Made by a program: the position numbers and the translations under genes. Below are positions 4,646 through 47,797 of a stretch of DNA of 64,000 nucleotides, piece by piece (the first letter of the stretch is position 1; each line of letters starts with the position of its first letter). The notes under the pieces were generated by a model. It saw nothing but the letters and a program-made list of their open reading frames with translations. It searched no databases and was not told the DNA's origin. Source of the stretch: Bacillota bacterium. GTDB taxonomy: Bacteria > Bacillota > Sulfobacillia > JAMDAP01. The stretch is taken from assembly GCA_050260815.1 (NCBI GenBank), contig JBLNCQ010000070.1:10518-74517 (forward strand), in the 5' to 3' direction.

Positions 4646-4649
4646 CTGC

Positions 4650-7238: not shown

Positions 7239-7268
7239 ATAGAACCCCCCGGTTTGCGGAATTGGCGC

Positions 7269-8432: not shown

Positions 8433-8487
8433 AACCATCAACACCATTCCGTAGACGTCCTGATCGTCGTCTTTGGACGCGCCGCAA

Positions 8488-9759
8488 CTACGGGGAATTG
8501 ACTCTCTTCCGATGCGGATATTGCCGATAAAGGCGCGCAGACACGGAGACTACGTAGAGCAGAAAGATCCAGTTGATCGGTTGTTTCAGGTACGCGCTAT
8601 TCGCCCACGTCATTATCCCGTACCCCACTAGAGCCACTAAGCTAGCCACGACTAACGGTTCGGCGACAGAGCGCCGGCGATAGATAAGCAGGGCGCACCA
8701 AAGTAGGAAAGTGACAAAGGCTGTAAAGATGAACAAACCATACTGGGACAATATCTCGATCCAGAGACTATGGGGGTTCAGGATACCGCTAGTGTTATAT
8801 CGTCCTAAGCCTCGTTCCGTATAGACCTCGAAGCCACCCGCACCAGTCCCTAGCCCATATGATAGCCAGAGATAGTGTAGTCCGTCCTTTACCAAATTCA
8901 CGCGTTCGACTACAGAGGCATCATGCCCGCTTAAGGTAGACAAAGAGTCTATACCGCGAATAGCGATCATTGGGAACACTAGAATGAAAACGAGTAACGC
9001 CTGCCGCACTGCCGCCCTCCGAGTGCTCAGCAGAAGGTAGGCTACTGCCTCGAATGCCAGCGCAATGATGCCAAGTCGGCTCCGGGTTGCTACGAGGAGA
9101 ACGGGAATGCTGGTAGCTAGAGCAAGGTATACCACGCGCATAAGAGACCTCGCGCGGTGTACTGCTAGTGCCATTAGGGGCAGAACAATGGTAAGGAAGG
9201 CCGCGTAGTTGTTGGGATTGTCGAAGGTAGCTGCGACTACGCCGTCCTTGGCGTAGGCCGGAGCGTTTAGCGCCCAGTAACTTGACAAGTGGTGCGCCGT
9301 AATGAGCTCCCATGCCGCAACGGCTCCCGTTAGGATAAACGCCCACACCCAACCCCGCTCTAGATAGGCCAGGCCTTCCTCAGTTGAAGCACCAAAGTGG
9401 AGAAGCCCCCATGCTCCAACAATCCCAATAGCCAAATCGCCTATTTCGCGTAGGGCGGTCAGTCCATCCGGGGCCCAGTAGTATGAGGCGGTTCCCCCGA
9501 GAAGCCACAGGGAGGCTAAGGCTGAGAACATTACAGCGGGCAAGGCTGAATCTCGAGGCAATCGCCTCCGGACAAGGCCGAAGCCAACAACACTGACGAC
9601 CGTGGCAAGGACTATAAGACGAAACCCGTAGAGGGTGACTCCGAATAACTGAACAGGGAGGAGATGCTGACCTAAAGCAGCCACTGGGACTGCCAGACCG
9701 ATTAGGAATCGTTGAAGACGGCTGAGCCGGACTGGCGCCCCTGAACTAGTGGCGCTCAT
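8488..9759 (-). CDS. O-antigen polymerase/ligase family membrane protein (Wzy-like)
   Basis: 423 aa polytopic membrane protein. The Wzy_C-type loop motif NPHSLWIEILSQYG sits after about 8 TM segments. Confidence 0.7.
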   Translation of the reverse strand: MSATSSGAPVRLSRLQRFLIGLAVPVAALGQHLLPVQLFGVTLYGFRLIVLATVVSVVGFGLVRRRLPRDSALPAVMFSALASLWLLGGTASYYWAPDGLTALREIGDLAIGIVGAWGLLHFGASTEEGLAYLERGWVWAFILTGAVAAWELITAHHLSSYWALNAPAYAKDGVVAATFDNPNNYAAFLTIVLPLMALAVHRARSLMRVVYLALATSIPVLLVATRSRLGIIALAFEAVAYLLLSTRRAAVRQALLVFILVFPMIAIRGIDSLSTLSGHDASVVERVNLVKDGLHYLWLSYGLGTGAGGFEVYTERGLGRYNTSGILNPHSLWIEILSQYGLFIFTAFVTFLLWCALLIYRRRSVAEPLVVASLVALVGYGIMTWANSAYLKQPINWIFLLYVVSVSARLYRQYPHRKRVNSP

Positions 9760-9794
9760 CTATGCACCTCCCTTCGCATTCACTTCAATACCAG

Positions 9795-10727
9795 TCAGTC
9801 TCTAAGCAACGTACCGACTCGGCGCCCGACATGCTTCAACACATCTATTGCCAAAGAACCAAGAATAAGGGCGGGTTGAGGGCTTCGGAACAGCGTATGC
9901 TGCGCTTCGCCATAAAGTCGCAAGTGCAAGAAACGCTTCACAAGCTCCACTCGATGCTTGTACTCGGGGCCGGGAGCGGTTGTAAGCCGTCGATCTATAC
10001 GTGCTCGAGTTTCGTCGTCTAGGAACCGCGTAATGAGCAGCGCGTTCTCTTTGATGATGGCTCTTCTCACAGCAGGCTGCTGACTGAGTTGACGTTCATG
10101 AATCCTCCTCAATCCAACGACGTCATTCATGTAGACTGAAGAATAGCCGTGATAAGTCAGCAACAGCCACATTGCGTAGTCCTGGGAGTAGAGAATTCCG
10201 GTGTCGAACAGGCCTAGTTCGAGTGCCGTCTGGCGCTTGACTATCGTCGTTGCCCCATTAACGAAGCAACCAAACACCAAATCGACGAACCAGTCGTGTT
10301 CTATTAGGCCATCGACGTCCCAACCAAGAGCGAAACGAACTAGTGGAGGGAAGAACTCCTGGTGGTTATTGAACTGCCTATAGTCACCAAAATAGAAGTC
10401 AGCATCTGGGTATCGGTTCATATAGTGGCTGATGACCGCTCCAGCTTCAGGTGTGTAGAGGTCATCTGAAGATAGCCAAGCAACGTACTTGGTTTCTGCG
10501 GCAGCGATTCCCGTGTTCAGTGCTGAGGAAATACCTCGGTTGGATGCATGCCTAATGCATCGGACACCCGATTCTCTGGCCTCGTCGAATGTGCTATCAG
10601 TGGAGCCATCATCGACAACTATTATCCGCTCGCGCTGGGAACCGAGGGCCCGTTGAGCCGACTCAATTGACTCCCGCAGATAGGCAGCTGCGTTATAGGC
10701 AGGAATAATGACGGTGATGTCGTTCAC
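9795..10727 (-). CDS. glycosyltransferase family 2
   Basis: N-terminus ITVIIPAYNAAAYLRESIES...VVDDGSTD, with DxD-type motifs. Confidence 0.8.
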   Translation of the reverse strand: MNDITVIIPAYNAAAYLRESIESAQRALGSQRERIIVVDDGSTDSTFDEARESGVRCIRHASNRGISSALNTGIAAAETKYVAWLSSDDLYTPEAGAVISHYMNRYPDADFYFGDYRQFNNHQEFFPPLVRFALGWDVDGLIEHDWFVDLVFGCFVNGATTIVKRQTALELGLFDTGILYSQDYAMWLLLTYHGYSSVYMNDVVGLRRIHERQLSQQPAVRRAIIKENALLITRFLDDETRARIDRRLTTAPGPEYKHRVELVKRFLHLRLYGEAQHTLFRSPQPALILGSLAIDVLKHVGRRVGTLLRD

Positions 10728-10798
10728 GGTATCTTGGCAACCTCCTTGCCACCCGGATCATCTTGCACTTCATTGGGCGAGGCCGCTCTGAGGGTTGC

Positions 10799-12037
10799 TC
10801 ACATGACGCTACGTACAGGCTCTGGCGCAAATAGTTTACGAGCCCCGTTGCCTTGCCGTCCTACTAGTCCTTCGTAGATGCGTGCCATGGTAGCGGCATT
10901 GTGGTCCCAGGTGTACTCTTGACTTACCATTTGCTGGCCTCTTTCCCCCATCTCCTGGGCACGAGCAGGGTTACTGAGGAGGTCATCCATCGCGTCCACT
11001 AGTTCGTCTAGCGCCTGGCGAGCGACAAGACGTCCATGGACGCCGTCTACTACAAAGTCCGCTAATCCTTCTCCTTTGCAGCCGATTACCGGCTTGCCAC
11101 AAGCAAGGGCCTCAAGGTAAACGATACCAAATCCTTCCTGCCAGCTAGGCAGAGAGAATATACTGCAGGTCGCCATGGCGGCCATTACTTCATCGTGTGG
11201 GCGCCTGCCCAAGAACGTAACGTGCTCTTGGAGCCCCAGTTCTTGCGTCAACGCAACAAGGTTAGGGCGTTCAGGACCGTCTCCTATGATCAAATAGTGC
11301 AGGTCTGGGTACTTTGGTAGAATCTCCTTTACTGCCCGAAGGTTTAGGTCAATGCCTTTACTCCTAATAAGGTTTGATACGCTCAAGATCAGAGGCGGTG
11401 ACGCAGTCCGGAGACTCGGACGCCGCACCCTGGAGAGGGCGGTCGTCCCATTGGGTACCACTCTCCAATTGGAGCGATTACCGAAGAGAGAAACGGCTAA
11501 CCCATGAAGCTTTCTGCTAACAAAGACAACTTGTGTTGCCCCGATCAGCACCTCTCCTACTGCCGAGGCACATGCCGAATTTAGCTTTACCGTTGTCTGT
11601 AGGTCCTGACCGTGGACCGTCACCACTAGCGGCTTAGCGTAGGCCTCCGCTATCTTCATCGCGGCGTACCCCGCAGGAAGCGCGACGTGAGCATGAAGTA
11701 CGTCGAAAGGAAAGACACCGTATGTTAGGTCGACCAGTTGTGCTATTGAGTACAAGAGCCGCTTACCGGAAGACGCGTAGAACAACGATCTAGGGAACTG
11801 CAGAAAACGGGGATAGGAAATCTGAATCCCATCGAGCGCACCCTGCTGAGGAATGGCATGATACATCCTCCATTTGGGGTTGATCTGGGCCAGAAGGGCA
11901 GGTGCCCATGGCACAGGTGAAATGACGCGAACATCGATGCCCCTTCGCGCTAAAGCCTGAACCTGTTGATGGACGAACACACCGAAGACCGGGTTGGCTG
12001 GCGAGGGGTATAACGTAGAAAGAACCAGTACTCTCAT
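10799..12037 (-). CDS. glycosyltransferase family 4
   Basis: 412 aa. N-terminus MRVLVLSTLYPSP, with the GT4 core motif (EGFGIVYLEALACGKPVI). Confidence 0.8.
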   Translation of the reverse strand: MRVLVLSTLYPSPANPVFGVFVHQQVQALARRGIDVRVISPVPWAPALLAQINPKWRMYHAIPQQGALDGIQISYPRFLQFPRSLFYASSGKRLLYSIAQLVDLTYGVFPFDVLHAHVALPAGYAAMKIAEAYAKPLVVTVHGQDLQTTVKLNSACASAVGEVLIGATQVVFVSRKLHGLAVSLFGNRSNWRVVPNGTTALSRVRRPSLRTASPPLILSVSNLIRSKGIDLNLRAVKEILPKYPDLHYLIIGDGPERPNLVALTQELGLQEHVTFLGRRPHDEVMAAMATCSIFSLPSWQEGFGIVYLEALACGKPVIGCKGEGLADFVVDGVHGRLVARQALDELVDAMDDLLSNPARAQEMGERGQQMVSQEYTWDHNAATMARIYEGLVGRQGNGARKLFAPEPVRSVM

Positions 12038-31471: not shown

Positions 31472-33045
31472 TTCTGCACCTTCACCCTGTCGCCGTCCTT
31501 AAGTTTGGCCAGCACGTCGGAGGGGCCGGTGACAACCTGCTCGCCTTCCTTGATACCTTCGGTGATCTCCACGTGCGTCTGGGTCATGATGCCGGTGGTG
31601 ACCTTGCGCTGGTGGACAACAGAGCCGTCCAGGACGAAGACGACCTTCTCGCCGCCGCGGTCCAGCACCGCCTCCAGGGGCAGGGCCAGCGCCGCGTCCT
31701 TCTGGTTGGAGCTAATCTCCACGTCCACATTCATGCCGGGCTTCAGCAGGTCGTCCGGATTCTTCACGGTGATCTCAGCGATGAAGACCGAGATGTTGCC
31801 GTCCCGGACCGCGCGGGGGGCAAGCTTGGTTACCGTTCCCTCGAAGACCTGGCCCAGGTACGCCGCGGACGTGATCTTCGCCTTCTGGCCAACGGCCACC
31901 TTGCCGATGTCCACCTCGTCAACCTTGGCCTTGACCACCAGGTCATGGGTGGCGCCGATGGTGAACAGCGGCGTGCCCGGGGCGACGATGTCGCCCTCCT
32001 TTACATAGACAGCCAGGACCTTGCCGTCGATGGGCGAGAGGATGTCGGGCGTCTTGTAGTCCTCCAGGGCCTGCTGGTAGGCGGCCTCAGCGGAGCGGGC
32101 CGCGGCCTGGGCGGCGGCCACGTCGTCGTCCGTGGTCTGCGTAAGCTGATGCTGCAGCTTGACCTGGTCGAGGGCGGCCTGCGCGTCATCCAACTGGGCT
32201 TGCGCCAGGGCAATCTGCCGCTCGGCACCACCGTTCTTCAACTGGTCAAGCTGATCCCTGGCGGTGTCTACCCGGTTCTGGGCCTGCAGCAACTGGTCGG
32301 CGATGGTCTTGTCCTGATTCGCCAGCGCGTCCTGGATCTTCTCCACATTGTCCCGCGCCTGCACCAGCGACTGGTAGGCCGCCAGGTAGGCTGAGCTGCC
32401 GTAGACCTCGCCGCCCTTGTTCTGGTTGAAGGCCATCTGCGCGTTGTCCAGGACCTTCTGGGCTTCCGCTAGGTCCTCCGCCGTCACGCGGCCCTGCTCC
32501 AGCTCCTGCTTCAGCAGATCGAAGGCGGCCTCGGCATCCTTGAGAGCCCGGTCAGCCTGTGCCGACTGCGCGGAGGTGTCCTGCGTCGCCTGCTCAAAGG
32601 AGAGGCGCGCAGACGCCAGGTGCCGCTCAGCGGCGGCCAAGTCCTGGGCGTATTGCTGGGGGTCCAGTTCACGCTTGCGAGCGACCTGCGTCGCCTGGGC
32701 GCGGGCCTGAGCCGCCGCGGACTCCGCTTTGGCGAGCTGGGCCGTGACTTCACCGGCCGCATACGAGCCGAGGACATCGCCCGCCTCGACCTCGTCGCCT
32801 TCCTTTGCGGTCTGGTGGGCAAACGTCGCGGCAAGCTTGGCCTTGACGTCGACCTGGTCCAGGCCTTCGGTGTAGCCCGTAGCTGTAACCGTCGTGGTGA
32901 GGGCGGTTGTGATCACCCCCTGCGTCTGAACGGCCATACCGGCCTGAGCACTCCGGCTGCGGAGTGCCGCGAGTCCCACGAATGCGCCCGCCAGAAGAAT
33001 AAGGGCGGTCGGCACAATTATTTTGGGGTTGCGCACCAGGTTCAT
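31468..33045 (-). CDS. efflux membrane-fusion protein (HlyD/MacA family periplasmic adaptor)
   Basis: 525 aa. N-terminal TM, a long coiled-coil, and a C-terminal beta-barrel/lipoyl-like region. An AGGAGG RBS is present. Confidence 0.8.
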
Positions 33046-33174
33046 AACTGCCTCCTACAGATGTAGCCTTGGAGTGAGTTACACGTACGAGTATACGGCT
33101 GTCGGCGTCAAAAAGTCTGCCAAAAACCCGCTTTCCCAAGGCTTCACTCTTTACGGGCGTGACGCGCCTGTCGC

Positions 33175-33204
33175 TTGACCCGTCCTATGCCGGTCCGCTA
33201 TCCT
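33175..33204 (+). promoter_or_regulatory. sigma-A-type promoter candidate for 33242 gene
   Basis: TTGACC - 18 nt - TATCCT. Confidence 0.4.
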
Positions 33205-33241
33205 CGAGGCGGACACATTCCGATATCGTAAGGAGGCACTT

Positions 33242-33616
33242 GTGTATTCCATCATCTCTGGCATCTATCTCGTGCTCGCGTTGGTGCAGGTTTTCGTCTA
33301 TCTCTGGGCTGCATCTACCTACAAGAAGGGGTGGGTCTGGGCCGCGGCGTTATTAGCCTTGCTACACGTGGTGCTGCTCATGACACCGGACATGGATCTG
33401 GTCAAGTTCATCGTTGGCCTGAACCTGCCGGGGGACCTGCCTCTCTACCTGTCTTCGGCCCTTTACGTGCCTTCCCGGTGGGGTGTAGCGACCTACGGTG
33501 TGCTGACGGTACTGCCCTTCGTGTTGGCCCGGCCTTGGGCGTGGGGAGCCCCTCGCGGGGGCAGCGCCCACGTGCGAGGAGTCGCAAGTAGCGATAACCA
33601 CGCCAGCAACAGATAA
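33242..33616 (+). CDS. small hydrophobic membrane protein, unknown function
   Basis: 124 aa. GTG start preceded by a strong RBS (AAGGAGG, 6 nt spacing). 3-4 TM. Confidence 0.6.
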   Translation: MYSIISGIYLVLALVQVFVYLWAASTYKKGWVWAAALLALLHVVLLMTPDMDLVKFIVGLNLPGDLPLYLSSALYVPSRWGVATYGVLTVLPFVLARPWAWGAPRGGSAHVRGVASSDNHASNR

Positions 33617-33797
33617 GGAGGTCCTCGTTCCGCTGCGGCCTGTCTGTTCTTCATTCTTGGGGTGGTAGCTTCGAAGCGAACCGTAATAGCCAGCTGACCG
33701 GAGGCCATAAGGTCCACGGCCTCCCTTGTCAAAGGCTGCCAACGAAATGCAAAACTGGGGAGCACCAGAGGTGCTCCCCAGTCTCGTGTTAGGCCTG

Positions 33798-36221
33798 CTA
33801 CTCGACGATCACGATCGCCACGACGATACCATCGCCGTCCACGTACACCTTGACCGAGTTATCAGTCGAGATGTTAGCGAACTCGGTGGCACCCGGCGTG
33901 GAGCCCGTGTAATCGAACACCTGAGTGTCCTCAGTCGCAGTCACAGGATCGCCGGTAGTCGGGTAGACGACCAGGTTGGTGGCGTCCACAGAATCGACAG
34001 TGATCGGGGCAGGATCAGCAAACTCACTGAGGTTCGAGATCTCAGTGCCGTCTGCAAAGAAGCTGATTACATCGCCCACTGCCAAATCGTCATAATCGCC
34101 GCTGGCAACCTCGTAATCCTTCGAGGCGCCCTCAGAGATAACGGAGACAAAGTAGCCATCGGCGGTCCGGTAACGACCGGAGACGATGCCGACCTTGTCG
34201 GTGGCGGCGGCGATGTCACCCTTGACCACGATGGTGCCGACAACGATGCTGTCGGTCTTCAAGGTGATCGCGGCGCTGACAGTCGAACCATCCTTCGCAG
34301 CTTCGAGTTCCGCCCGGGTCAGGACAGCGAAACTCGTGCCGTCAGCGGACTCCTGGAAAATCGGAGTGCTGCTGCCAAGTGCGTAAACCGCATTAGTGAC
34401 AGTATCCTGCAGAGTGTGGTTGTCCTTCTTAACGTTGTACGTGGTGGGGCTGTCCACATCAGCATACAGGCTGATCTCATCAATTGCACCGTCGGAGTCG
34501 ACGGTGTAGCCAATAACGGTACCAGCCTTGTTCGTCAGGGCAGCCTGAGCAGATGCAAAGCCAGCGTCGTAGTCGACCGTGTTGCCATCAACATCAGCCT
34601 TGTTGGCGATCTTCAGCGTCGCCTTGGTACCATCGGACTTCAGCACCTTGACGTACATGACCTGGCCGTCCGTGGTGGTAACCACGAGCGGAGCCTCAGC
34701 CGTCAGGAGCGCATAGGCCTTAGTCGGGGCAGCCGCGGCATCAACTGCAACGACCTTGCCATCCTTGTTCAGGTAGACCGTGGTGGTCTCACCAAGCGAG
34801 GAATCAAAATCGTTGGGATCAAGCTTGGCACCATCAGCCTCAGCCGACTGGTCAGCAGCCTTATAGGCAGTCCCGTCGATATAGAAGGAAGAGGACGTGA
34901 TCTTCGTCAGCTCGCCCTTCTTGGCATTACGGGTAACTACCACGAGGTAGCTGTTGTCAGTGGCGCTGATCTTCGCGTATTGGACAACGTCGCCAGCCTT
35001 GATGTCCTCGAACTTGGTGGCAGCGCCAGAGTAGGTGACGCTTTCACCGTCTAGAGTGATGGACTTGCCATTCTCGAAGTACACACGGGTGTAGGTCGAG
35101 CTCGTCTTGTCAACAAGACCAGTCTCGTAGCCGATGCCAACAACATAAGACACGCTACGACCGTCGTAGATCACAGCGATCTCGTCGCCAGCCTCGAAGG
35201 CACTGACGCCGCCCTCAGTCGCGAAGTTGCGGACGTACGTGGTTTCCGCGGGCAGAGTGACCTTGACGTTATCATCCGTGACGGAGATGCCGTCGGTGAT
35301 TCCATCGGCGGGGCTAGTATCAACTACGGTACCGGTCTTGATGCTGGTGGACGGAGTCTTGTCCTCGACAAAGAAGACGCTACCGTCCTTGCCAGTCCAA
35401 GCCTTCACCTTGTGGCCAAGGAGGCGAGCAACATCGACGCTGCCAAGGTCCAGAACCTCGTCACCATCAGCGGTGGCGACGGTAATGGTGGCATCAAGAG
35501 AGCCGTCAAGGCCCGGGACGGACGTCAGCGTGCCTTCGTAAGCGGTGGCGCCCAGGGCAGTGTTCAGCAGGTTCTTGCCCTCGGCGATCTTGTAGGTGAT
35601 CTGGCCGTTCGTAACGCCATCCTCAACCATCAGGTCGATGGTCAGGGAATTGTCGACGAACAGGGCCACGTCACCACGGGTCGCCGGAGCAGAGCCGCCG
35701 CCGGAGATGGCGACGCCGCTGCTAACGCCAATCTGAGCAGCCTTGGCGAGATAGTTTGCGGGCCAGATTCCCCGGCCTTCGGTCACCGGAGCATAACCCA
35801 GCATGCGAACGATGATCGTCAGAGCCTGAGCATAGGTGACCGGATCTTCCGGACCGAACTTACCGTCCGGATAACCGGCAATCAGACCCTGCTGGCTGGC
35901 CACGTTGATGTAGCCAGAAGCCCAGTAATCGGCAGCCACGTCAGAGAACTTGGTAGCGCCCTTGGCGAAGTTCGCCGCGGACTCGAGGCCAAGCGCACGG
36001 ACGGCGATAGCCGCAAACTGAGCGCGGGTAACGCTGTCCTTAACGCCGAAGTTGCCATCCGGATAACCGGTGACAATTCCGAGGGCGTTCAGGCGGGTAG
36101 CGGCAGCGGCGGTCTTGCTGTCAGTGATGTCCGGGAAGGACGTGGCAGCAAACGCAGTGCCGACCATGCCGAAGAGCATCGCGACCACGGTGATGGCCAC
36201 GAGCGCCTTCTTCAAAGTCAT
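33798..36221 (-). CDS. S-layer (SLH-domain) protein, probable major surface-layer protein
   Basis: 807 aa. Signal peptide MTLKKALVAITVVAMLFGMVGTAFA, then three SLH domains (FPDITDSKTAAAATRLNALGIVTGYPDGNFG..., FSDVAADYWASGYINVASQQGLIAGYPDGKFGP..., then IWPANYLAKAAQIGV). A long Thr/Val/Asp-rich beta region follows. RBS AAGGGGGA; about 800 bp of upstream leader. Confidence 0.85.
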   Translation of the reverse strand: MTLKKALVAITVVAMLFGMVGTAFAATSFPDITDSKTAAAATRLNALGIVTGYPDGNFGVKDSVTRAQFAAIAVRALGLESAANFAKGATKFSDVAADYWASGYINVASQQGLIAGYPDGKFGPEDPVTYAQALTIIVRMLGYAPVTEGRGIWPANYLAKAAQIGVSSGVAISGGGSAPATRGDVALFVDNSLTIDLMVEDGVTNGQITYKIAEGKNLLNTALGATAYEGTLTSVPGLDGSLDATITVATADGDEVLDLGSVDVARLLGHKVKAWTGKDGSVFFVEDKTPSTSIKTGTVVDTSPADGITDGISVTDDNVKVTLPAETTYVRNFATEGGVSAFEAGDEIAVIYDGRSVSYVVGIGYETGLVDKTSSTYTRVYFENGKSITLDGESVTYSGAATKFEDIKAGDVVQYAKISATDNSYLVVVTRNAKKGELTKITSSSFYIDGTAYKAADQSAEADGAKLDPNDFDSSLGETTTVYLNKDGKVVAVDAAAAPTKAYALLTAEAPLVVTTTDGQVMYVKVLKSDGTKATLKIANKADVDGNTVDYDAGFASAQAALTNKAGTVIGYTVDSDGAIDEISLYADVDSPTTYNVKKDNHTLQDTVTNAVYALGSSTPIFQESADGTSFAVLTRAELEAAKDGSTVSAAITLKTDSIVVGTIVVKGDIAAATDKVGIVSGRYRTADGYFVSVISEGASKDYEVASGDYDDLAVGDVISFFADGTEISNLSEFADPAPITVDSVDATNLVVYPTTGDPVTATEDTQVFDYTGSTPGATEFANISTDNSVKVYVDGDGIVVAIVIVE

Positions 36222-37035
36222 GTCTTCAAATCCCCCTTGTGATTTGGTCTTTCCTCGGTTCCCCGAGAAAAACGAAGCCTGTTGGACACTCCTACGCTAG
36301 TTGGGAGCATCACTCCTTTCACAGGAAAGCCTGTGAAACTTTATCATTCATACCTGCCAAAGGCATGTGCAGCGCACGCGTTGCAGATTCCTCTGAGAGG
36401 TTTGAAGGATTCATGACCTTGTGTTGCCTATTCAGCTTTCAAGGTGCGGGCCCTTGCGGGCCGGGGTCCGCCGTCCAGCGGCGGGTCTTGCGCCCTACTG
36501 AATGAGGGCTATGAGATCACGGGCTGGTTCACCGCCCTTGCAGGGGTGGCCCGGACCTGACGGGGTAACATAGTTCGGTGCCTGACAACCCTCTCCTGCT
36601 TTGGAGCCCCTAGAAAGTTTCGGAGCTTGTTGGCAAGATTTGTGGGCCATCCTGGGTCCTCTGCCTGTTCCTTTATAAACTGGCGTCCTTGCCCAAGCTG
36701 GAGGGCACCGTGGAGCCCCTGGCCGATCGGGACAGGGCCGTGGTCCTGGTTCCTTTCGACCAGCTTTTCCACAAATCCTCCCGGTTCTTGGGGCTTCGCC
36801 TTGTCGTCCGCCCCCGGGAGGCTATTCCTGGCCGACGGTAGATGGACGTTCGGTTCCCCCGATTTGTTCCCAACCGGCGAAGATTTTTCTTGGGTTTTTA
36901 AGGACAGCCTGTATTGGCAAGCCTTGGACCCCTTTGGTAGAACCGGTAATCAGACGAAGCCCCGGCAAAGTTCCGGGGAGCGCCGACGTAGGTTGTTGCC
37001 AGCTCAGATTTGGCCAGCGGACGCCAAAAGGCGCT

Positions 37036-40227: not shown

Positions 40228-41517
40228 CTAGTGGTCCGGGGTTTCAGGGGCGTCCGCTTCGGCGGATTCCTCCTCCGGGCCCTCCCTTGCGTCGTCCGGG
40301 GCGTCAATCGACGGGGTATCCGCCGGCTCCGCTTCCTCTAGACCCAAGTCTGTCTGCTCGTCGCGGTCTTCGGTCTCCGCTGCCGGGCCATCAGGCTCGG
40401 CGCGTTCCGGTTCGGACGGCGCCTGCTGGGCGCCCTCCAAGTGGGCGGGGGCTGACGAGGCATCGTCCTGCTCGTCGCCTTCCTCGCGGGCGGCGGGCAC
40501 CGTCTCGTTTCGCTGCTCAGCCGCGCTGCCGGATTCCCCATCCGCGGTACCGTCGGCGGATCGGTCCTCCGGGTCGTCACGCCCGCTGTCGCCGTCGTTG
40601 GGGCCTTCCGCCTGGGCACTCTGATCAACCCGCTGGCCCGCAGGGTAGAGGTCGCTGGGGTCCATCCCCGCCCCGCGGAAGAAGTCGGCCAGGCTCTGGC
40701 CGCGCAAGGCCTCCTCGGAGTAGAGCACGCCCCTGCCCGTCAGCTCCCGTTTCACGGCTTCCCGGTTGACGGAGAGGCGGTCGAGCTGGGCGTCCTTGCG
40801 AAGGCTGGCGGTGGTCTGCGAAACGGCCACAAAACCGCTCAGGCCCTTGTCCTTCAGGCGGGTGGCGATGTCGCGCTGCACGGCGGCCGGATCCGGCCCC
40901 TCCCCACCTGTGAGGGAGACGACCGCCGCCACTACCACGTTGTCACGGTCGGGCCCCAGATAGCCAAAAGCCGCTGCCTGGTCGATCACGCGGTTGACAG
41001 CTTCATCTAGAGTCAGTCCCTTTACCGGCTGGGCCTCCAGAACGCGTTGGGCATCATGGTTGAGGGCGGTGCTCTGCAGCACCTCCCCCTGCCGATCCAC
41101 CTCCAGCTCCAGGCTGGGGTTGATGTCGATGGCTACTACGGCCACGGGCCGGGGCAGCAGAACCCGCGGCAGAACGGTGAAGGCCAGGACGGCCGCCGTC
41201 GCCAGCGCGAACCCTGCCCGCGCCCACGTGGCCGGGCCAACGCGGGCGTGCAGCCACGATTCCGCCCAGCTCCGGGCCGGTCGGTCTGCCGGGGCGTCCT
41301 CGGCGGCTCCTCCCTGCTGCGCCACGGCTGCCTCCGGAGGAGGCCAGGGGAGTTCAAGTTCCCTGCCCCGCCAGGCCCGCAGGACCTCGACAGGCAGTTC
41401 CGACTCGGCGGCGGGCAGGTGGCCCCGCAGGAACTTCAGGGAGACGGTGCGAAACTCGCCCTCCCGGGTCATGAGGACGGCCTGGTCGTCCAACACCTGC
41501 GCCAACAGGCATTTCAT
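40228..41517 (-). CDS. rsgI: anti-sigma-I factor RsgI-like. It has an N-terminal RsgI_N domain, one TM, a juxtamembrane folded segment and a long acidic disordered C-terminus.
   Basis: N-terminus MKCLLAQVLDDQAVLMTREGEFRTVSL matches the RsgI_N pattern G.V.EV.D.YAVVLT.DGEF. TM is GFALATAAVLAFTVL. The last 130 aa are very D/E/A/P-rich. It overlaps sigI by 4 nt. Confidence 0.7.
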   Translation of the reverse strand: MKCLLAQVLDDQAVLMTREGEFRTVSLKFLRGHLPAAESELPVEVLRAWRGRELELPWPPPEAAVAQQGGAAEDAPADRPARSWAESWLHARVGPATWARAGFALATAAVLAFTVLPRVLLPRPVAVVAIDINPSLELEVDRQGEVLQSTALNHDAQRVLEAQPVKGLTLDEAVNRVIDQAAAFGYLGPDRDNVVVAAVVSLTGGEGPDPAAVQRDIATRLKDKGLSGFVAVSQTTASLRKDAQLDRLSVNREAVKRELTGRGVLYSEEALRGQSLADFFRGAGMDPSDLYPAGQRVDQSAQAEGPNDGDSGRDDPEDRSADGTADGESGSAAEQRNETVPAAREEGDEQDDASSAPAHLEGAQQAPSEPERAEPDGPAAETEDRDEQTDLGLEEAEPADTPSIDAPDDAREGPEEESAEADAPETPDH

Positions 41518-42299
41518 AGGGCCCGTCCCCCCTCTTCCCCGGTTTGACCTGGCGAGGCCTCGCCGTTCGATGCCACCGTGCCGGTCGGCTCCAGCTTAAT
41601 GAAGCCCTTCAAATGGGTGTAGTCGTCGGTCCCCAGGATCAGGGCTACGGCGATGATGTACTTGCGCCCGGTCTCCAGCACCTTGCGGCTGAGGCCGGTG
41701 ACCCCCTGCAACTGCTTGATGGGCAGTTGGCCCTTACGCGTGAGGCTGCGCATGAGGGCCGCGTCCGAGGCCAGCCGTGCGGCGGCGCGCTGCAGGGAGA
41801 GGCGCGTATCCCGGTGGCGGGGACAGATTACGCCCAGCTCCGCCAGGGACGTGCCGTATCGTCTCAGGGCCAGATCGTAGCGCGCCAGGTCATCGGCCCG
41901 GTCCGCCATGTCCTCCTGCTCCCGATAAGCCGACGCGGCTGGCCCTGCCTCCAGGGGCGCGATCGCCCCGTCGTCGCCCTCCTCATCGGGGACGGCGCCG
42001 TCCAGCAACAGGGGCGCCTGTGCCGGCTGGCGGCGGAACCAGTCGACCAGCCGGTGGTGAATGACCATACTCGCGTGCCCAAGGAAAGACCTACCCGCCT
42101 CCGGGTTGAAGGTGTCGATAGCCTCGTTGAAGGCCAGCAGGCTCACGCTCAGTTCGTCGTCGTTGTGCCAGTCCAGGGGGCGGCGGCAGACCCTGGACGC
42201 GGCCTGCCTGATAAACGCCCGATGCCGGCTGATCAGCTCTTCCCGGGCCTGCTCGTCGCCGTCCTGCGAGTGGCGCAGCAGGTCCATCAGGACCGTGTC
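41514..42299 (-). CDS. sigI: RNA polymerase sigma factor SigI
   Basis: MDTVLMDLLRHSQDGDEQAREELISRHRAFIRQAAS...DDELSVSLLAFNEAIDTFNPEAGRSFLGHASMVIHHRLVDWFRR is highly typical of SigI region 2. Start taken at the internal Met with RBS AAAGGTGGGGAG; the track ORF's 96-aa N-extension was rejected. Confidence 0.75.
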   Translation of the reverse strand, partial: DTVLMDLLRHSQDGDEQAREELISRHRAFIRQAASRVCRRPLDWHNDDELSVSLLAFNEAIDTFNPEAGRSFLGHASMVIHHRLVDWFRRQPAQAPLLLDGAVPDEEGDDGAIAPLEAGPAASAYREQEDMADRADDLARYDLALRRYGTSLAELGVICPRHRDTRLSLQRAAARLASDAALMRSLTRKGQLPIKQLQGVTGLSRKVLETGRKYIIAVALILGTDDYTHLKGFIKLEPTGTVASNGEASPGQTGEEGGRAL

Positions 42300-42732
42300 C
42301 ATAGCTCTCCCCACCTTTCCATCCGACGAGCCGCCCTCCGTTTCGGGGGGCACCCGGCCGCGGCTCTCTCCACTAGCCGGCCGTCTTGGACCCGCTCCGT
42401 CACCCGGTCGCGCGAACGCAAAAACCGGCAAGCATGCCGAAGGCCTGGTTGCCGGTCGAATGGCGGGTCGGGAATCCGCCCCTTGCGGGCGGCGCCGAAT
42501 AACGCCTTGGCTGCGGCAACCGGCTGTCCTGGCCTCCCCGTCCGCCCCGACTCCCCTTGGGAGCCGGCTGGCGCGCTTTACCCGCATCCAGCAGGCAATG
42601 AGGCTGTAGACCCATGGCTTTGCGCCCCCGAGCTTTCACCCGGGGTGGCCCTTTTCGGTTTTCCGGCTATACGCATTCGACGGAAAGGGGTAAATTCCTT
42701 CCGTTTGAGGCAGAAAGTTCCTGCTAGTGTCG

Positions 42733-43005
42733 CTATGCGTCGTCGTCTCGCTCTACCTCGACGGCCTCCGCGAAGTACTTGTCATGGTTCTCCGCCAGGT
42801 CCGGCGGGCCCTGGGCCACTCCGATCAAGGATTGGAGGTCGTCGGGGCGCAGCGGCCGAAGGACGGGTTGGGGTTCGTCCTTCCTCAGGTGAATCTCGTC
42901 CCCCACCAATTTCACGGTCAGCCTGTCGCCCGGGTGCCACCCCAGGACACGGCAGGCCTCGACCGGCAGCGTGATCCGCCGCTTCCCGGTAATCTTGACC
43001 ATGAC
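42733..43005 (-). CDS. SpoVT/AbrB-domain protein (MazE/AbrB-like), orphan
   Basis: MVKITGKRRITLPVEACRVLGWHPGDRLTVKLVGDEIHLR is a swapped-hairpin AbrB fold. There is a strong RBS AAGGGAGG. No cognate toxin ORF lies next to it. Confidence 0.6.
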   Translation of the reverse strand, partial: VMVKITGKRRITLPVEACRVLGWHPGDRLTVKLVGDEIHLRKDEPQPVLRPLRPDDLQSLIGVAQGPPDLAENHDKYFAEAVEVERDDDA

Positions 43006-43200
43006 GCGGCCTCCCTTGAGCCTGTTGAGACCAGAGTACCCCCGAGGGAGCCACGTGGCAACCAGTCCTGAGCGCGGTGGTTGCATCCATTCTGGGTACC
43101 GGAGAACGAGTACCCCAGCAGACTACGAAGGGGTTGGTCGGGTGGCGTCGAATAATGGTAGTTGCTCCCATTTTCGCTCAAAGCCCGGGAGAGTGGTTGA

Positions 43201-43722
43201 GTGAACTACGCCAGATACCGACTCGCAGTGCTGGTGGCTCTATGCGATCGTAACCTACTCAATGATTATGCCGAGCCTTTGCCCGAGGCCCTCTTTGAGC
43301 AGAGTGAAACGGAATGGACGTACGTGGGCCCCGATGTCCTAAAGCTTGAGGGTGCAGACCTTGAGGTGAACGAAAGCGGGACTTTAGTTCGTCATCAGTC
43401 ACGTCACGTGGAAGCATCGGAGATGATATGGCAGAGGTTCCGCTTTCACTTCCAACCCCGTGATGCCACTTCTCATCGGGCGTGGAGAGTCGAGCTCAAC
43501 CGCACGCGCGACAGTCTCCATGCCAACACCGACCACCCCCCTCGCCACCCACGTCACCGGCTGGAACCAACCCAACTGACCCTGCGGATTGACGACTTCA
43601 ATGTGCTGTTGGCCCTTGAGGTGGCGGAGCGCTACCTGGCTACTCGTGAGTATCCAGTAGACCAGAGGTATGGTGGCAAGTATAACGCCGCCCTGGAGAC
43701 GGTGAGGAGGCAGAACTCTTGA
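43201..43722 (+). CDS. hypothetical protein (173 aa), first gene of low-GC island
   Basis: GTG start with RBS GGGAGAG. Coding-like composition, local GC clearly lower than the surroundings. No recognisable motif. Confidence 0.5.
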   Translation: MNYARYRLAVLVALCDRNLLNDYAEPLPEALFEQSETEWTYVGPDVLKLEGADLEVNESGTLVRHQSRHVEASEMIWQRFRFHFQPRDATSHRAWRVELNRTRDSLHANTDHPPRHPRHRLEPTQLTLRIDDFNVLLALEVAERYLATREYPVDQRYGGKYNAALETVRRQNS

Positions 43723-44354
43723 AACAGGGAATCAGCGTGACCACGTTCTACTTCGAAGATGAGGGACGCCACCACATGAAAAAGGCCGCCCAGTTGGCGG
43801 CTAAACGGGGCAAGGATCTCGCCATTAAGCACTTTGTAGTCTTCACGCGTGACGGTGAAGGCGCCGTACTCCTGAAGGATCTCCTTCAGCCATCGGACGC
43901 ATCAGTCGTGGCTGTGACTTTCCCGTACAAGCACCCTCTGTTTGTCCCTGATGAATCAGGAGAGTATCGGGACTTGATTCCTGAAACGTCAGTTCCAAAG
44001 ACCGTCAAGTACCTGACGGACCGAGGAATTGAGTTGGTCCGCGGAACAGCGCCGTTTACAGAGGGTTTCTTCATCCCGGGAGTCCGGGATCCCAAACTTG
44101 AAGGCATACGGTACGCCCTGCAACTGTTCTCAAGCGGTCTCCATCTATGCGTCCAGGCGGTAGCTATGGCGACAGACGCCGGGGCTATTGAGCCAGGTGA
44201 TGAAGTAATCGCCATGTCGGCCGACACCGCAATCGTGGCGCGAGCATCCTCTAGCCGTTACGTGTTTCACCCGACGGAGGGGATGGAGATTCGCGAGATA
44301 ATCTGCAAGCCTAGGCAGCTAACTCTCAGGGACGGAGAGAGGCGGGGGCGCTAG
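43719..44354 (+). CDS. hypothetical alpha/beta protein (211 aa), translationally coupled to the upstream gene
   Basis: The TTG start overlaps the upstream stop (cTTGA). Alternating hydrophobic beta-strand/helix pattern (HFVVFTRDGEGAVLL, VVAVTFPYKH, GDEVIAMSADTAIVARAS). Faint resemblance to pyruvate-kinase C-terminal-like alpha/beta domains, unverified. Confidence 0.5.
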   Translation: MKQGISVTTFYFEDEGRHHMKKAAQLAAKRGKDLAIKHFVVFTRDGEGAVLLKDLLQPSDASVVAVTFPYKHPLFVPDESGEYRDLIPETSVPKTVKYLTDRGIELVRGTAPFTEGFFIPGVRDPKLEGIRYALQLFSSGLHLCVQAVAMATDAGAIEPGDEVIAMSADTAIVARASSSRYVFHPTEGMEIREIICKPRQLTLRDGERRGR

Positions 44355-44718
44355 CCCCCGCCTCGTGTTTATCATTGTTGCTGGCTTGTCCCCGCGACGG
44401 GGACCCCGCTGTGCCCGCCGGTGGCAGCGTAAAAGGGTCGCCGCCAGCGTCCAAAAACCTCTCGTAACGGTGAACCCACTCAAGAGCGTCGAACTTCGGC
44501 ACCTGGGCGCTGTAATCAAAGTAGTTCTCGCGAAAGCTGCGGTAGAATTCGAGCGTTTCAATGTGGTACTTCCGCTCAAATTCAATCAACCGATTCCGCT
44601 GGAAAGTGAGGTCGTCAACAACACGAACTACCCCCAACCGGATCAGGTCCGCCTCAGAAATCTCAACGCCCGAATCAAGCAACTTTCTCAGCTCTTCAAC
44701 GCTTGTCATGGAGATCAC
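44326..44718 (-). CDS. hypothetical protein (about 127-130 aa), convergent with and tail-overlapping the previous gene
   Basis: Low-GC, protein-like N-terminal 95 aa (MTSVEELRKLLDSGVEISEADLIRLGVVRVVDDLTFQRNRLIEFERKYHIETLEFYRSFRENYFDY...). The C-terminal 30 aa is low-complexity and runs through the terminator hairpin and into the neighbour, so the 3' end is uncertain. Confidence 0.4.
   Translation of the reverse strand: MISMTSVEELRKLLDSGVEISEADLIRLGVVRVVDDLTFQRNRLIEFERKYHIETLEFYRSFRENYFDYSAQVPKFDALEWVHRYERFLDAGGDPFTLPPAGTAGSPSRGQASNNDKHEAGASAPASLRP
44355..44394 (+). terminator. intrinsic terminator of the two-gene unit
   Basis: GGCGGGGGC gcta GCCCCCGCC (9-bp stem; the stop codon sits in the loop), followed by TCGTGTTTATCATTGTTG. 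Confidence 0.55.
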
Positions 44719-44866
44719 CTCACTCCACTAAGGGAAAGGGCACTTCGTCAAGTCTCAGCCAGAATCCTGCTACTGTCCCCTGAAATCTACGATTAGCCTC
44801 TCCAGAAGTAGAACTGGCATTCACTCTATCGCCAAGTGCCAAGATGGTCAAGTAATAAATTGCCTA

Positions 44867-47797
44867 TTAGTACCTCAGCATCCTCGCCACCAGGGCCGCG
44901 CCCTGGGCTCGCGTCAGGCTGCCGCTGGGGTTATAGATCATCCGCCCGCCTTCCACGTAGCCCGTGACCAGCCCCTTCTCCTCCAGCGCCTGCACGGCGG
45001 ACCGGCCCGCGTACGAGCCCAGGTCCGTCAGGTTGCTGTGGAATCCGGCGCTGGGGGCACTGAGCCGCAGGGCCGCGGCGATGAGCTGCGCCGCCTCACC
45101 CCGGGTGATGGGATCCTGGGGGTGGAAGGGCGACACCAGGATCTGCCCCGCCCCGGGCTGGCCCGCCTGGTCGGGCGGCAGGGAGGTCGGATCGATGTTC
45201 ACCAGCTGCCCCTCCGCCTCGTCCACGAGTCCGGCCAGCAGGCCCTTTTCCTCTAACGCCTCCACGTAGGGCTTGGACCAGTGGCCGTTCAGGTCGCTGA
45301 TGCGGCTGCTGAAGTTGACCGAGGGCTGGGTCAGGGCCAGGTAGCGGGCCACCATGGCGGCCAGCTCCCCTTTCAGCAGGGGCAGGTCCACGCCGAAGCG
45401 ACCGTCCGGCAGGCCGTTGACCATGTTGGCGGCGGCGATGGCCTGGATGTCGGTCCGGGCCCAGTTGGTGGCCGTGTCGCTGAAGGACGGCTGCGGCAGG
45501 GCCGGCGACGGCCTGGCCGCCACGGCGTAGAGGTAGCCGTCCATGGATCCCACGTAGGCGGTGTAAGTGCCTGCGAAGCCGCTGCCGGCTGTCGACGGGG
45601 TCGGCGCCGCGGTAGGCGTCCCAAAAATGAAGTTGTCACCCAGGGCGTAGGTCCAGAGGACCTGGCCGGTGGTGGGGTTCTCGCTCACCAGGCGGCCGCT
45701 CAGGCTGCCCACGACCACGTCGCCGCCCTGCCCAAAGTCGACCGGGCTGGAGTCATACGTGGACCAGCCCGACGAGGCCTTCCCCTGAATCTGTCCGGTG
45801 AGGGGGTCCAGGGTGAGGGCGCTGCCGTCCGAGGTGCCCACCAGCAGGCTGCCCGCGCGAAGCTGCGGGCTGGAGAAGCTGGTGCCCAGGCTGGATGTCC
45901 AGAGGGCGGTGCCATCGTCCGGGTTGAGCGCCCGCAGCCCGATGGACCCGGTCTTGGCGTCCTGCGGCGTGGTCACGAACAGGCGGCCGAAGCCGTAAAT
46001 GGGCGAGCCGTTCGATGGCGAGTAGTAGATGTCACGGCCCAGGGCCTGGGTCCAGCGGACCCGGCCGGTCACTGCATCCAGGGCGTACAGGTTCCGGTCC
46101 CACGCGCCCACGTAGACCAGGCCGCGGCCGTAGGCCGGCTTGACGCGTATGGCGTCACCGGCGGTGAAGTGCCAGCGCTCGCTGCCGTCCGACGCCTTGA
46201 GAGCGTAGAGATTGTGGTCGGTGGAGCCGATGTAGACGGTGTCACCCACTACCAGCGGCGCGCCCACCACGGAGCCCTGGGTGGCGCGCGACCAGACCAG
46301 GCGGCCATTGGCGGCATCAAGGGCGTAGACGCGCCCGTTCGCCGAGCCGAAGTAGAGGCGGCCGTTGGCCAGGGTGGGGCCGGAGATAATCGCCCCGCCG
46401 GTCGAGAAGACCCAGGCCTGCGTGCCCTTGTCGGCGCGAACGGCGTAGAGACGGCCGTCCGACGAGCCAACGTACACCAGCGACCCGTCCGTCGCGGGCT
46501 GGCCCTGGATGCCGCCGCCGGTGGCGAAGCGCCAGCGCAGGGTCGGCACGCTGTCGAAGAGCGGCCCGTCGGAGACGGCGCCGTTTGTGCCGCCGGCCGC
46601 CCCGTCGCTCCCGGCCGGCCGCAGGTAGCCGTCCAGCCGGATCTCGACGTGGTCGACGTAGCGCTTGCCCGCCGGGTCATAGGCCTGGACGTAGAGATCG
46701 TGGATGCCCGGCGGCAGGCCCTTCAGGTCGATGGAGCCCGTGCCGTTGTACGTACCCTCCGCCCCGTAGGCTACGGGGACGTCAAGATTCTGCCACGAGC
46801 CCGCGTCCAGGCGGTACTGCGCCTTGTCAGGCGCCTGCTCAACGAAGCCCGTGAGCTGATACTTGAAGCTCAGCGTCTGCGTGGCCGGGCCCTTGACGGT
46901 CGTCCCCGTGACCGGCGAGGTGATGCGCAGCAGTTGCCGCTGGGTGGGCCTGGTCAGCGGGATCGTGGCGGCCAGCTCAGGCTGGGCGCCCGCCACCTGG
47001 TTGTAGATCCTGGCCTCACCGCCCTCCACCTGGATGACCTTGAAGCCGGCGTCCATGACGGCGGCGGTCATGAAGGCGGGGATGCCGTTCACGCTCCACT
47101 GCAGGTTCGTGTGGCCGTGGCCGGAGAACAGGGCCACCACGTTATACGGTTGCACGATGTCCAGGAAGTCCTGGTCGTTGTCCAGGAAGCGGCTGGGCGT
47201 GTACCCGATGGGATGATGGCTGAAGACCATCACCGGCGTCGAGGTGCCCACCTTCTTCAGGTCGGCGGCCAGCCAGTCCAGCATGGCCTTCTCCAGGTGG
47301 CCGTGGGTCTCGGCGCTGATGGACGTGTCCAGCAGCACGAAGTGGATGCCGCCCTGATCGAAGGACGAGTAGGGCTGGCCGAAGCGGGCGGTGAAGCCCA
47401 TCTTGCCGGCGTCCGACCAGCGGGCATCGTGGTTGCCGGGGACGTGGTAGACGGGAATGTTGGCGTCCCGCCAGGGCTTGATCATCTGCTGGTAGAGGTC
47501 ATAGTGGTGGGGCAGGCCGAACTCGGTCACGTCCCCGCCGTTGATAATAAAGGCGGGCCGCGGGTTGTTGGCCAGCACCTGGTCCACAACCTTGGGCATG
47601 TTGGTGTTGCCGGCGCTGGACCCGGCGTGCGGGTCGGTGATGGTGACGAAGGTGAAGTCGTCCGCCGCCAGGGCGGTGCGGGGCCGGAACAAGCCGGGGC
47701 CCGGCGCCAGGATGGAGCCGAAACCCATGACGAACAACAAGGCCAGGGCCGTACCCGCCGCCAGCAGCCGGGCCGGCCTGCGGAGCCGTTGAAGCAT
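44867..47797 (-). CDS. S-layer-anchored multidomain protein: calcineurin-like metallophosphoesterase, PQQ-repeat beta-propeller and three C-terminal SLH domains
   Basis: 976 aa. Signal peptide. Phosphoesterase motifs ITDPHAG, GGDVTEFG, GNHDARW and SGHGHTN. There are many copies of the PQQ-like repeat (G.LYA.DA.TG...W). SLH domains begin FSDTATNWARTDIQAIAAANMVNG..., ISDLNGHWSKPYVEALEEKGLLAG... and LTDLGSYAGRSAVQALEEKGLVTG... Confidence 0.85.
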   Translation of the reverse strand: MLQRLRRPARLLAAGTALALLFVMGFGSILAPGPGLFRPRTALAADDFTFVTITDPHAGSSAGNTNMPKVVDQVLANNPRPAFIINGGDVTEFGLPHHYDLYQQMIKPWRDANIPVYHVPGNHDARWSDAGKMGFTARFGQPYSSFDQGGIHFVLLDTSISAETHGHLEKAMLDWLAADLKKVGTSTPVMVFSHHPIGYTPSRFLDNDQDFLDIVQPYNVVALFSGHGHTNLQWSVNGIPAFMTAAVMDAGFKVIQVEGGEARIYNQVAGAQPELAATIPLTRPTQRQLLRITSPVTGTTVKGPATQTLSFKYQLTGFVEQAPDKAQYRLDAGSWQNLDVPVAYGAEGTYNGTGSIDLKGLPPGIHDLYVQAYDPAGKRYVDHVEIRLDGYLRPAGSDGAAGGTNGAVSDGPLFDSVPTLRWRFATGGGIQGQPATDGSLVYVGSSDGRLYAVRADKGTQAWVFSTGGAIISGPTLANGRLYFGSANGRVYALDAANGRLVWSRATQGSVVGAPLVVGDTVYIGSTDHNLYALKASDGSERWHFTAGDAIRVKPAYGRGLVYVGAWDRNLYALDAVTGRVRWTQALGRDIYYSPSNGSPIYGFGRLFVTTPQDAKTGSIGLRALNPDDGTALWTSSLGTSFSSPQLRAGSLLVGTSDGSALTLDPLTGQIQGKASSGWSTYDSSPVDFGQGGDVVVGSLSGRLVSENPTTGQVLWTYALGDNFIFGTPTAAPTPSTAGSGFAGTYTAYVGSMDGYLYAVAARPSPALPQPSFSDTATNWARTDIQAIAAANMVNGLPDGRFGVDLPLLKGELAAMVARYLALTQPSVNFSSRISDLNGHWSKPYVEALEEKGLLAGLVDEAEGQLVNIDPTSLPPDQAGQPGAGQILVSPFHPQDPITRGEAAQLIAAALRLSAPSAGFHSNLTDLGSYAGRSAVQALEEKGLVTGYVEGGRMIYNPSGSLTRAQGAALVARMLRY

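Follow-up and report, generated by a model that had tools for sequence, protein, structure and literature searches.

A candidate tripartite TumE/TumA-type toxin-antitoxin cassette with a PK_C-fold third component in a low-GC island of a Bacillota genome

Results

Two coupled genes and a convergent third lie in a low-GC island

We analyzed a stretch of 64,000 nucleotides (nt) from a Bacillota bacterium (Sulfobacillia; GenBank assembly GCA_050260815.1, contig JBLNCQ010000070.1, positions 10,518 to 74,517 of the forward strand), hereafter called the window. Between about 43 and 45 kb of the window lies a GC-poor island with three genes, here named A, B, and C, which we read as a candidate mobile toxin-antitoxin cassette of the TumE/TumA type. 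All three genes are intact in the window. Gene A, encoding a putative TumE-like toxin of 173 amino acids (aa), occupies positions 43201–43722 of the forward strand and starts with GTG, 7 nt downstream of a GGGAGAG site (43187–43193). Gene B, encoding a stand-alone PK_C protein of 211 aa, follows on the same strand at 43719–44354, with a TTG start and a GAGGAGG site at 43704–43710. Both genes thus have a ribosome-binding site of the GGAG type 7–8 nt ahead of their start codons, and the start of B overlaps the TGA stop of A as cTTGA. The coordinates of these open reading frames (ORFs) and their overlap had been given in an original prediction made from the sequence of this stretch, and we confirmed both. 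The translational coupling of A and B that it proposed was borne out as well, with the same 4-nt overlap present at L001, L003, L010, and L017 (the loci compared here carry L numbers).

Gene C, encoding a putative TumA-like antitoxin of 127 aa, lies on the reverse strand at 44326–44709. The longest ORF begins at a GTG at 44718 (44326–44718), and the ATG at 44709, with AGGTGA ahead of it at 44720–44715, is the start of the 127-aa protein P0067 as called by NCBI. C is convergent on B and the two overlap by 29 nt at their 3′ ends, a tail-overlap that had been noticed before; the convergent gene belongs to the module. A GC-rich hairpin sits in this 3′ overlap, at 44339–44364, with an 11-bp stem containing 10 G-C pairs and a folding energy of about −28 kcal/mol. 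It was significant on both strands (z −3.2 on the forward and −4.9 on the reverse strand), it spans the stop codon of B inside the 3′ end of C, and an equivalent hairpin is found at the end of C at L011. The original prediction had placed a strong terminator at 44355–44394: the strong hairpin stands, but its position had to be corrected, and the T-tract that follows it is weak. The element is a probable two-way terminator or transcript-stabilizing element.

The drop in GC content that had first drawn attention to the locus was confirmed both by sliding-window GC and by GC content at third codon positions (GC3). The segment 43151–44866 has 55.5% GC between flanks of 66–73%, and in 300-nt sliding windows GC ranged from 0.51 to 0.60 over 43100–44900 and from 0.66 to 0.75 on both sides, making a sharp and discrete trough at about 43.1–44.9 kb. 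GC3 was 0.64, 0.63, and 0.66 for A, B, and C, as against 0.81–0.86 for the neighboring AbrB gene, 0.81 for SigI/RsgI, and 0.92 for PQQ-SLH. The description of the locus as a compact module of foreign composition therefore holds for all three genes. Among the 1.7-kb stretches that lie past the first 12.5 kb, none was as GC-poor as the island; 11.6% of all 1.7-kb windows were as low, every one of them within the polysaccharide cluster at 0.5–12 kb. The dip is in this respect more than local variation. Low-GC patches are not unique to the island within the window, since two further such zones are present, at 1–12.5 kb (53–59%) and 33–36.5 kb (57–59%).

On the left, the island reaches into the intergenic region between AbrB and A, which are divergent (43006–43200, 56% GC); this region presumably holds the promoter of the A-B operon as well as the left edge of the island. 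On the right, the region upstream of C (44719–44866, read on the reverse strand) is AT-rich with 47% GC, as had been predicted for that edge, and contains a sigma-70-like promoter match, by consensus only, with a −35 box TTGACC at 44851–44846 and a −10 box TAGAGT at 44828–44823. The exact borders were not definable from a repeat search, and tRNA genes were absent from the window. The sole flanking repeat, a 13-nt direct repeat with 12 of 13 matches at 42719–42731 and 44765–44777 (TCCTGCTAGTGTC / TCCTGCTACTGTC), brackets AbrB and the module; by our estimate, chance alone would produce about two pairs of this kind in 2.8 kb, and the repeat is hence no evidence of an insertion site.

B matches stand-alone PK_C proteins of known structure

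Protein B scored 28.2 bits against the Pfam family PK_C (PF02887), for which the gathering cut-off is 28.0. In the Protein Data Bank (PDB), it matched two structures end to end, namely 1VP8 (AF0103; 2e-14, residues 10–200) and 1T57 (MTH1675; 3.8e-11). On these matches, B is a full-length stand-alone PK_C protein of the MTH1675/AF0103 type. Twenty-eight positions, including G46, D153–G155, A168–A171, and I191–R199, are conserved in the module clade together with 66 solo homologues. The B proteins of the module form a distinct subclade, whose members are at least ~40% identical among themselves and at most 37% identical to the rest of the family, and which has FT for AS at positions 42–43, S167 for G, and an inserted HP..G at 184–188.

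The family of MTH1675 and AF0103 is structurally known and is not a housekeeping family. The PK_C fold binds fructose 1,6-bisphosphate in pyruvate kinase, AF0103 was crystallized with flavin mononucleotide, and a PK_C domain forms the N-terminus of the DacZ/CdaZ cyclases, ahead of the catalytic domain (PMC6741144). Elsewhere, then, this fold binds phosphorylated small molecules and serves in regulation; from the fold and the coupling to A, B is probably a ligand-sensing (ligand-binding) subunit.

Profile comparisons suggest that A is a remote relative of TumE

Protein A had no match in Pfam, NCBIfam, PADLOC, or PHROGs. In Pfam, the window protein yielded nothing at E ≤ 1, and five members of its family had no TumE match at E ≤ 10; the sole weak match in the family was to DUF6978 (0.041, two members). 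A profile search of the PDB with the A family was likewise empty. The family is rare: a word-indexed search of 5.8 billion proteins returned a single copy, 99% identical, and phmmer, run exhaustively on 1.84 billion cluster representatives, retrieved 25 relatives. We noticed that the exact A protein is absent from the 5.8-billion-protein collection, in which the 99% copy comes from a read-archive assembly, and that B and C are present there as the NCBI-annotated proteins ACM3ZA_05855 and ACM3ZA_05860. It may be, therefore, that the public record of this metagenome-assembled genome (MAG) lacks an annotation of gene A.

The alignment of the A family contains the motifs YHFQP, FRIDL/WRVEL, and LHANxD (LHANPD), a further His, and YP..YN. 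The AlphaFold (AF2) model of A (pLDDT 88.8, pTM 0.86) is an alpha+beta protein with an N-terminal helix, a seven-stranded antiparallel sheet, and two C-terminal helices. This layout agrees with the published description of TumE, in which two helices pack on a seven-stranded antiparallel sheet without a match in the PDB (PMC10584680); the comparison was made by description, as our own PDB search retrieved no TumE structure. The TumE-TumA superfamily was defined in 2023 (Durairaj et al., Nature 2023, PMC10584680). TumE (DUF6516) stops growth by blocking translation and is neutralized by its upstream partner (PMC10584680); it is suspected to be an RNase.

For a direct comparison, TumE genes were fetched from metagenomes as ORFs containing the back-translated motif FRYDNAPHH, which gave 92 distinct complete ORFs and their upstream partners. 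The motif had been pre-checked on two TumE-like probe sequences, both called TumE by Pfam (88 and 59 bits). Single-sequence hhalign comparisons with these two probes were weak (P 0.006 and 0.6), so the comparison reported here rests on the real metagenomic ORFs. When the A family (22 sequences) was aligned with the 92 TumE ORFs, hhalign gave a probability of 83.8, P 7.9e-6, and a score of 40.1 over 84 columns. The 23 controls, comprising a reversed profile, 20 column-shuffled profiles, and the unrelated B and C profiles, scored 8.5–16.4 with P ≥ 0.047. The extended alignment was collinear over the whole protein, from the N-terminal helix through YRYHY (YHFQP in A), FRYDN (FRIDL), PHH (LHaN), and HHKH (a single h) to the C-terminal helix. 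Moreover, a TumE hidden Markov model (HMM) run on 3451 ORFs ranked one canonical TumE first and five A proteins next.

The likeness is partial at the level of single residues. Relative to the TumE histidine motifs (YHY, RYDNxPHH, and PHHKH), A keeps YH, FRxD, and two His (H83, R96, H107, and an H near 120). Other residues stand in place of the second His of PHH and of most of HHKH, and N109 and D111 appear as new invariant residues. At 84%, the hhalign probability suggests, but does not establish, that A is a remote relative of the TumE toxin.

C resembles TumA

The C family is small, with 18 clusters. The AF2 model of C shows an all-helical core over residues 1–98 (pLDDT ~85) and a variable, disordered tail, and a PDB profile search with the family found no solved relative. 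Library searches gave sub-threshold hints only, to NCBIfam TumA (NF045776, E 0.016) and to the PADLOC candidate PDC-M44A (E 0.031); C reached 15.4 bits where the NCBIfam TumA cut-off is 100, and one of five C-family members matched that model.

The C-family HMM matched the genes upstream of real TumE genes, with E values from 4e-7, and not the downstream ones. With hhalign, the C family aligned to the TumE partners at a probability of 95.2 (P 2.5e-8, score 49.3; controls 7–14). In the opposite direction, the best matches of a TumA HMM among the 3451 ORFs were C proteins, the window C itself having an E value of 1.6e-6. These comparisons place C among the remote relatives of the TumA antitoxin. 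The position of its gene is unlike that of TumA, as C is convergent in the window and at most loci, and downstream and co-directional at L001 and L003.

Profile comparisons and HMM searches agree in relating A and C, remotely, to the two members of a validated toxin-antitoxin pair; neither protein passes the cut-off of its curated family model. The original prediction had seen in these genes no family that could be named. This was not borne out: B is a PK_C protein of the MTH1675/AF0103 kind, and A and C appear as remote relatives of TumE and TumA.

The three genes travel together

Co-occurrence was assessed from the neighborhoods of B homologues and from a scan of one genome per species, all ORFs being searched with the A, B, and C HMMs. 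The trio was found at ~17 loci in Bacillota, near-duplicate contigs included, with unrelated neighbors. Every B of the close subclade (~40% identity or more) adjoins C, almost always with A upstream and a 4-nt overlap. The hosts include Syntrophomonadaceae, Thermacetogeniaceae, Syntrophomonas palmitatica, a Paenibacillus isolate, a Thermaerobacter MAG, and other Bacillota. Neither A nor C adjoined any of the ~70 B homologues outside this subclade, which come from Archaeoglobi, Bathyarchaeia, Desulfobacterales, and others. Conversely, a search of 120 canonical TumE loci (599 kb) found a PK_C gene in none.

The surroundings of the module varied. At L001 and L002, it adjoins a large serine recombinase, beyond which lie ImmA-like peptidase, helix-turn-helix (HTH), and Mu Gam genes, at the edge of a prophage-like region. 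Thiamine genes flank it at L003, SLH and Wzy genes at L005, PIN, HicB, and GmrSD_N genes at L012, and, at L013, PIN and a gene for a 1340-aa helicase (AAA_11/12) with DUF559. Taken with its composition, this distribution marks the island as a genuine cassette of three genes that moves horizontally. As separate observations, the copies at L005 and L012 adjoin envelope or glycosyltransferase genes; near the module at L003, a DUF6504 gene (7353–7601) neighbors an ImuB-like polymerase gene, and at L007/L008 (2486–2749) a small DUF6504 gene stands directly upstream of a solo PK_C gene (L007).

Some of these neighborhoods raise the question of whether the module serves in abortive infection or phage defense instead of as a plasmid-addiction toxin-antitoxin pair. 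In such a scheme, B would sense a phage-altered pool of nucleotides, flavins, or sugar phosphates and release A, with C restraining the system; this refines the toxin-antitoxin reading and differs from it in biological role. The place of the module at the recombinase end of the prophage-like region of L001/L002, its clustering with PIN, HicB, GmrSD_N, and nSTAND-type genes at L012, its position beside the helicase-DUF559 gene at L013, and the weak match of C to PDC-M44A all fit this idea, as would a ligand-binding third subunit acting as the sensor. However, many loci are in ordinary chromosomal contexts such as thiamine and cell-envelope genes, adjacency to defense genes is anecdotal (two or three of ~17 loci), and PADLOC gave no significant match for A or B. 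We consider a dedicated role in phage defense rather unlikely, and retain the broader toxin-antitoxin reading as the working one.

A and B decay while C is kept

The most direct comparison was offered by L011, whose flanks are 81–94% identical to the window at the nucleotide level, with the gene order PQQ-SLH, C, AbrB, SigI, RsgI. At this locus, the equivalent of window positions 43252–44129, which takes in almost the whole of A and two thirds of B, is deleted; what remains of A is its first 50 nt, and of B a remnant of 95 nt. Positions 703–1225 of L011 align to 43251–42762 of the window, showing that the AbrB-A intergenic region survives there along with this start of A. C is intact, with 75% amino-acid identity to the window C, a dN/dS of 0.13, and a GC3 of 0.66. 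A look at the same locus in a relative, which the original prediction had called for, thus revealed a decayed island of non-native composition rather than a block with native GC. It also means that the acquisition predates the split of the two lineages, and the notion of a recent insertion was not supported. We observed in addition that C (44326–44709 against L011 191–574) has a dS of 1.28, two to four times that of the flanking SigI, AbrB, and RsgI genes (0.30–0.66); this could reflect either a weaker codon bias in a low-GC gene or exchange of island alleles.

L011 was not an isolated case. At L015, B and C are kept and the TumE-like core of A is missing, and at L021, L022, and L024, A and/or B are fragmentary and C is intact. 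Altogether, A and/or B were truncated or deleted next to an intact C at five loci, and A-B without C was seen at none of the loci searched with the three HMMs. Such one-sided decay is what is predicted if A, perhaps with B, is harmful and C protective. Incidentally, L022 also carries, at 3611–4296 of the same contig and ~3 kb from its decayed module, a canonical TumA-TumE pair (TumA HMM 1e-6, TumE HMM 6e-13).

A quite different possibility was that the module is a non-toxic accessory one, in which B does the job of the solo family, A and C are specificity or regulatory partners, and the likeness to TumE and TumA reflects fold ancestry. B does keep nearly all the residues conserved in the ~66 solo archaeal and bacterial homologues, A has lost part of the TumE histidine cluster, and the module has occupied one chromosomal locus since before two lineages split. 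Against this, the module is sporadic, of foreign composition, and set in unrelated neighborhoods; A and B were lost repeatedly with C retained under purifying selection; and both components other than B are related to halves of an experimentally validated toxin-antitoxin pair. We therefore regard a non-toxic module as improbable, and continue with the toxin-antitoxin cassette.

AbrB is a resident neighbor

Directly upstream of A, on the reverse strand at 42733–43005, lies a SpoVT/AbrB (MazE-type) gene, whose identity, proposed earlier, was confirmed with Pfam PF04014 (MazE_antitoxin, 3e-7) and TIGR01439 (1e-8). The protein probably starts in reality at the internal MVKITGKRR (43005), where its L011 orthologue also begins. 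As a MazE-type swapped-hairpin protein encoded divergently from A at a distance of 195 bp, it could have been the antitoxin or the regulator of the A-B pair, and at L020 a two-domain AbrB-like ORF (6467–6979) lies ~440 bp from C. However, its GC3 of 0.86 is that of the native genes rather than the ~0.64 of A, B, and C, and an AbrB homologue was found near the module only at L020 and at the orthologous locus L011; it was not beside the module at L001, L003, L005, L010, L012, L013, L014, L017, and L019. At L011, moreover, AbrB is kept with a dN/dS of 0.26 where A and B are deleted. The link to the module is largely refuted, a role for AbrB as partner of A-B being highly improbable, and we rejected the gene as a module component on account of its GC3 (0.86 vs 0.64) and rare co-occurrence; it lies outside the cassette as a resident neighbor. 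In a Desulforudis MAG (L054, 5965–6824), an AbrB-like gene abuts a solo PK_C gene; with L020, this makes the AbrB/PK_C adjacency recurrent, probably by coincidence.

Other features of the window were recorded on the way. Next to AbrB, the longest SigI ORF (41514–42587, reverse strand, 357 aa) has an N-terminal extension of ~95 aa that has no counterpart in the L011 orthologue, which is 262 aa long and starts with MDTVLMDLL; the real start of SigI in the window is probably at 42302. The reverse strand of 490–12037 holds at least 10 co-directional polysaccharide-biosynthesis genes (Bac_transf, GT4, UDP-GlcNAc 2-epimerase, Polysacc_synt_2, UDP-glucose dehydrogenase, Wzy_C, and GT2), with 53–59% GC, about 10 points under the rest of the window. 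It is a second, much larger island of atypical composition. The third low-GC patch (33000–36500) contains the gene of an 807-aa SLH-domain protein (33798–36221, reverse strand), and further SLH proteins are encoded up to 40.1 kb, which places the module in a cell-envelope gene neighborhood.

Discussion

A probable toxin-antitoxin cassette with a possible ligand sensor

Taken together, the resemblances between A and TumE and between C and TumA, the conserved trio, the varied neighbors, the one-sided decay, and the ligand-binding fold of B make it more likely than not that the island is a mobile tripartite toxin-antitoxin cassette of the TumE/TumA type. The original prediction had suggested toxin-antitoxin or other defense-type cargo, and this is the reading best supported by the remote homology of A and C, the co-occurrence of the trio, and the one-sided decay.

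By analogy with TumE, A would be a divergent effector that stops growth, and C would bind and neutralize it. A separate promoter on the strand opposite A-B would drive C, which in some relatives would instead be expressed downstream of A-B in the same orientation. Through the start/stop overlap, B would be produced in a fixed ratio with A, and an A-B complex might make the activity of the toxin, or its dissociation from C, dependent on a signaling metabolite or nucleotide. The convergent arrangement and the shared strong hairpin would yield separate, possibly mutually interfering transcripts. The sequence data show the gene anatomy, the family of B, the remote homologies of A and C, the strict co-occurrence of the trio, its mobility, and its pattern of decay; the toxicity of A, its neutralization by C, the A-B complex, and ligand sensing by B are all inferred. 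Our confidence in the specific role of B is lower than in the cassette itself: that B is a metabolite- or nucleotide-sensing subunit gating the TumE-like toxin, in a toxin-antitoxin or abortive-infection system triggered by a small molecule, is a tentative proposal, possible rather than probable.

Several points weigh against this interpretation. The Pfam TumE model does not detect A, which retains only some of the TumE histidines, and our TumE profile, being built from a selection on the single motif FRYDNAPHH, covers only part of the superfamily. In canonical tumA-tumE, the antitoxin gene is upstream and in one operon with the toxin gene, whereas C is downstream or convergent. PADLOC and PHROGs have no match to A or B, and no copies were found in phage collections (GenBank phages by tblastn for A; a scan of IMG/VR for B). 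Finally, the activity predicted for A is second-hand, via TumE, and the role given to B comes solely from its fold and its coupling to A.

Should the toxin-antitoxin reading hold, the cassette extends the TumE-TumA superfamily to a branch that current Pfam and NCBIfam models miss. The pairing of a TumE-like protein with a conserved protein of ligand-binding fold suggests that toxin activity is under small-molecule control, and an orphan family of structural genomics (1VP8 and 1T57) gains a testable biological context. The five loci that have lost A and/or B and retain C are natural knock-outs, which predict which gene is the toxin. If B does gate the toxin, this would provide the first functional handle on the widespread MTH1675/AF0103 family, and the solo PK_C proteins might then, for instance, represent the sensor or target in the cell that is imitated by the module copy.

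Comparison with known systems

Tripartite toxin-antitoxin systems are known, among them the toxin-antitoxin-chaperone systems (HigBA-SecB-like) and HipBST. The present cassette resembles them in that a conserved third protein is added to a two-part core. It differs in that this third component has a PK_C small-molecule-binding fold and is coupled to the toxin, not to the antitoxin; B is not known to resemble SecB chaperones, HipS, or DNA-binding regulators.

The PK_C domains of pyruvate kinase and DacZ/CdaZ share the fold of B and offer a precedent for a ligand module that controls an attached catalytic partner (PMC6741144). B differs from them in being a separate polypeptide, and its presumed partner is toxin-like rather than a metabolic or signaling enzyme. 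With MTH1675 and AF0103, the agreement is closer, as B matches both structures from end to end and keeps the conserved residues. Yet B is flanked by C and almost always by A, whereas ~70 other members of that family are solo genes.

The closest comparison is with TumE-TumA itself (PF20126). A is collinear with TumE (N-terminal helix, YHx, FRxD, H, H, C-terminal helix) and its model agrees with the helix and seven-stranded antiparallel sheet in the description of TumE, C has the TumA core L..FE.KY.I.T..F...F....D...W, and in both systems the genes are small, adjacent, and mobile. In contrast to TumE, A has ~45 additional residues, among them a further C-terminal helix and the YP..YN motif; PHH has become LHxNxD, and a single H stands for HHKH. 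The toxin gene comes first, with the antitoxin gene downstream or convergent, where the canonical operon runs from antitoxin to toxin. To this is added the conserved third gene B, coupled to the toxin gene and present in 0 of the 120 canonical TumE loci. In the searchable literature, we found no description of a combination of TumE-like, TumA-like, and PK_C proteins. The kind of system is a known one; what appears to be new is a branch missed by the family models, with an inverted or convergent gene order and a conserved PK_C third component.

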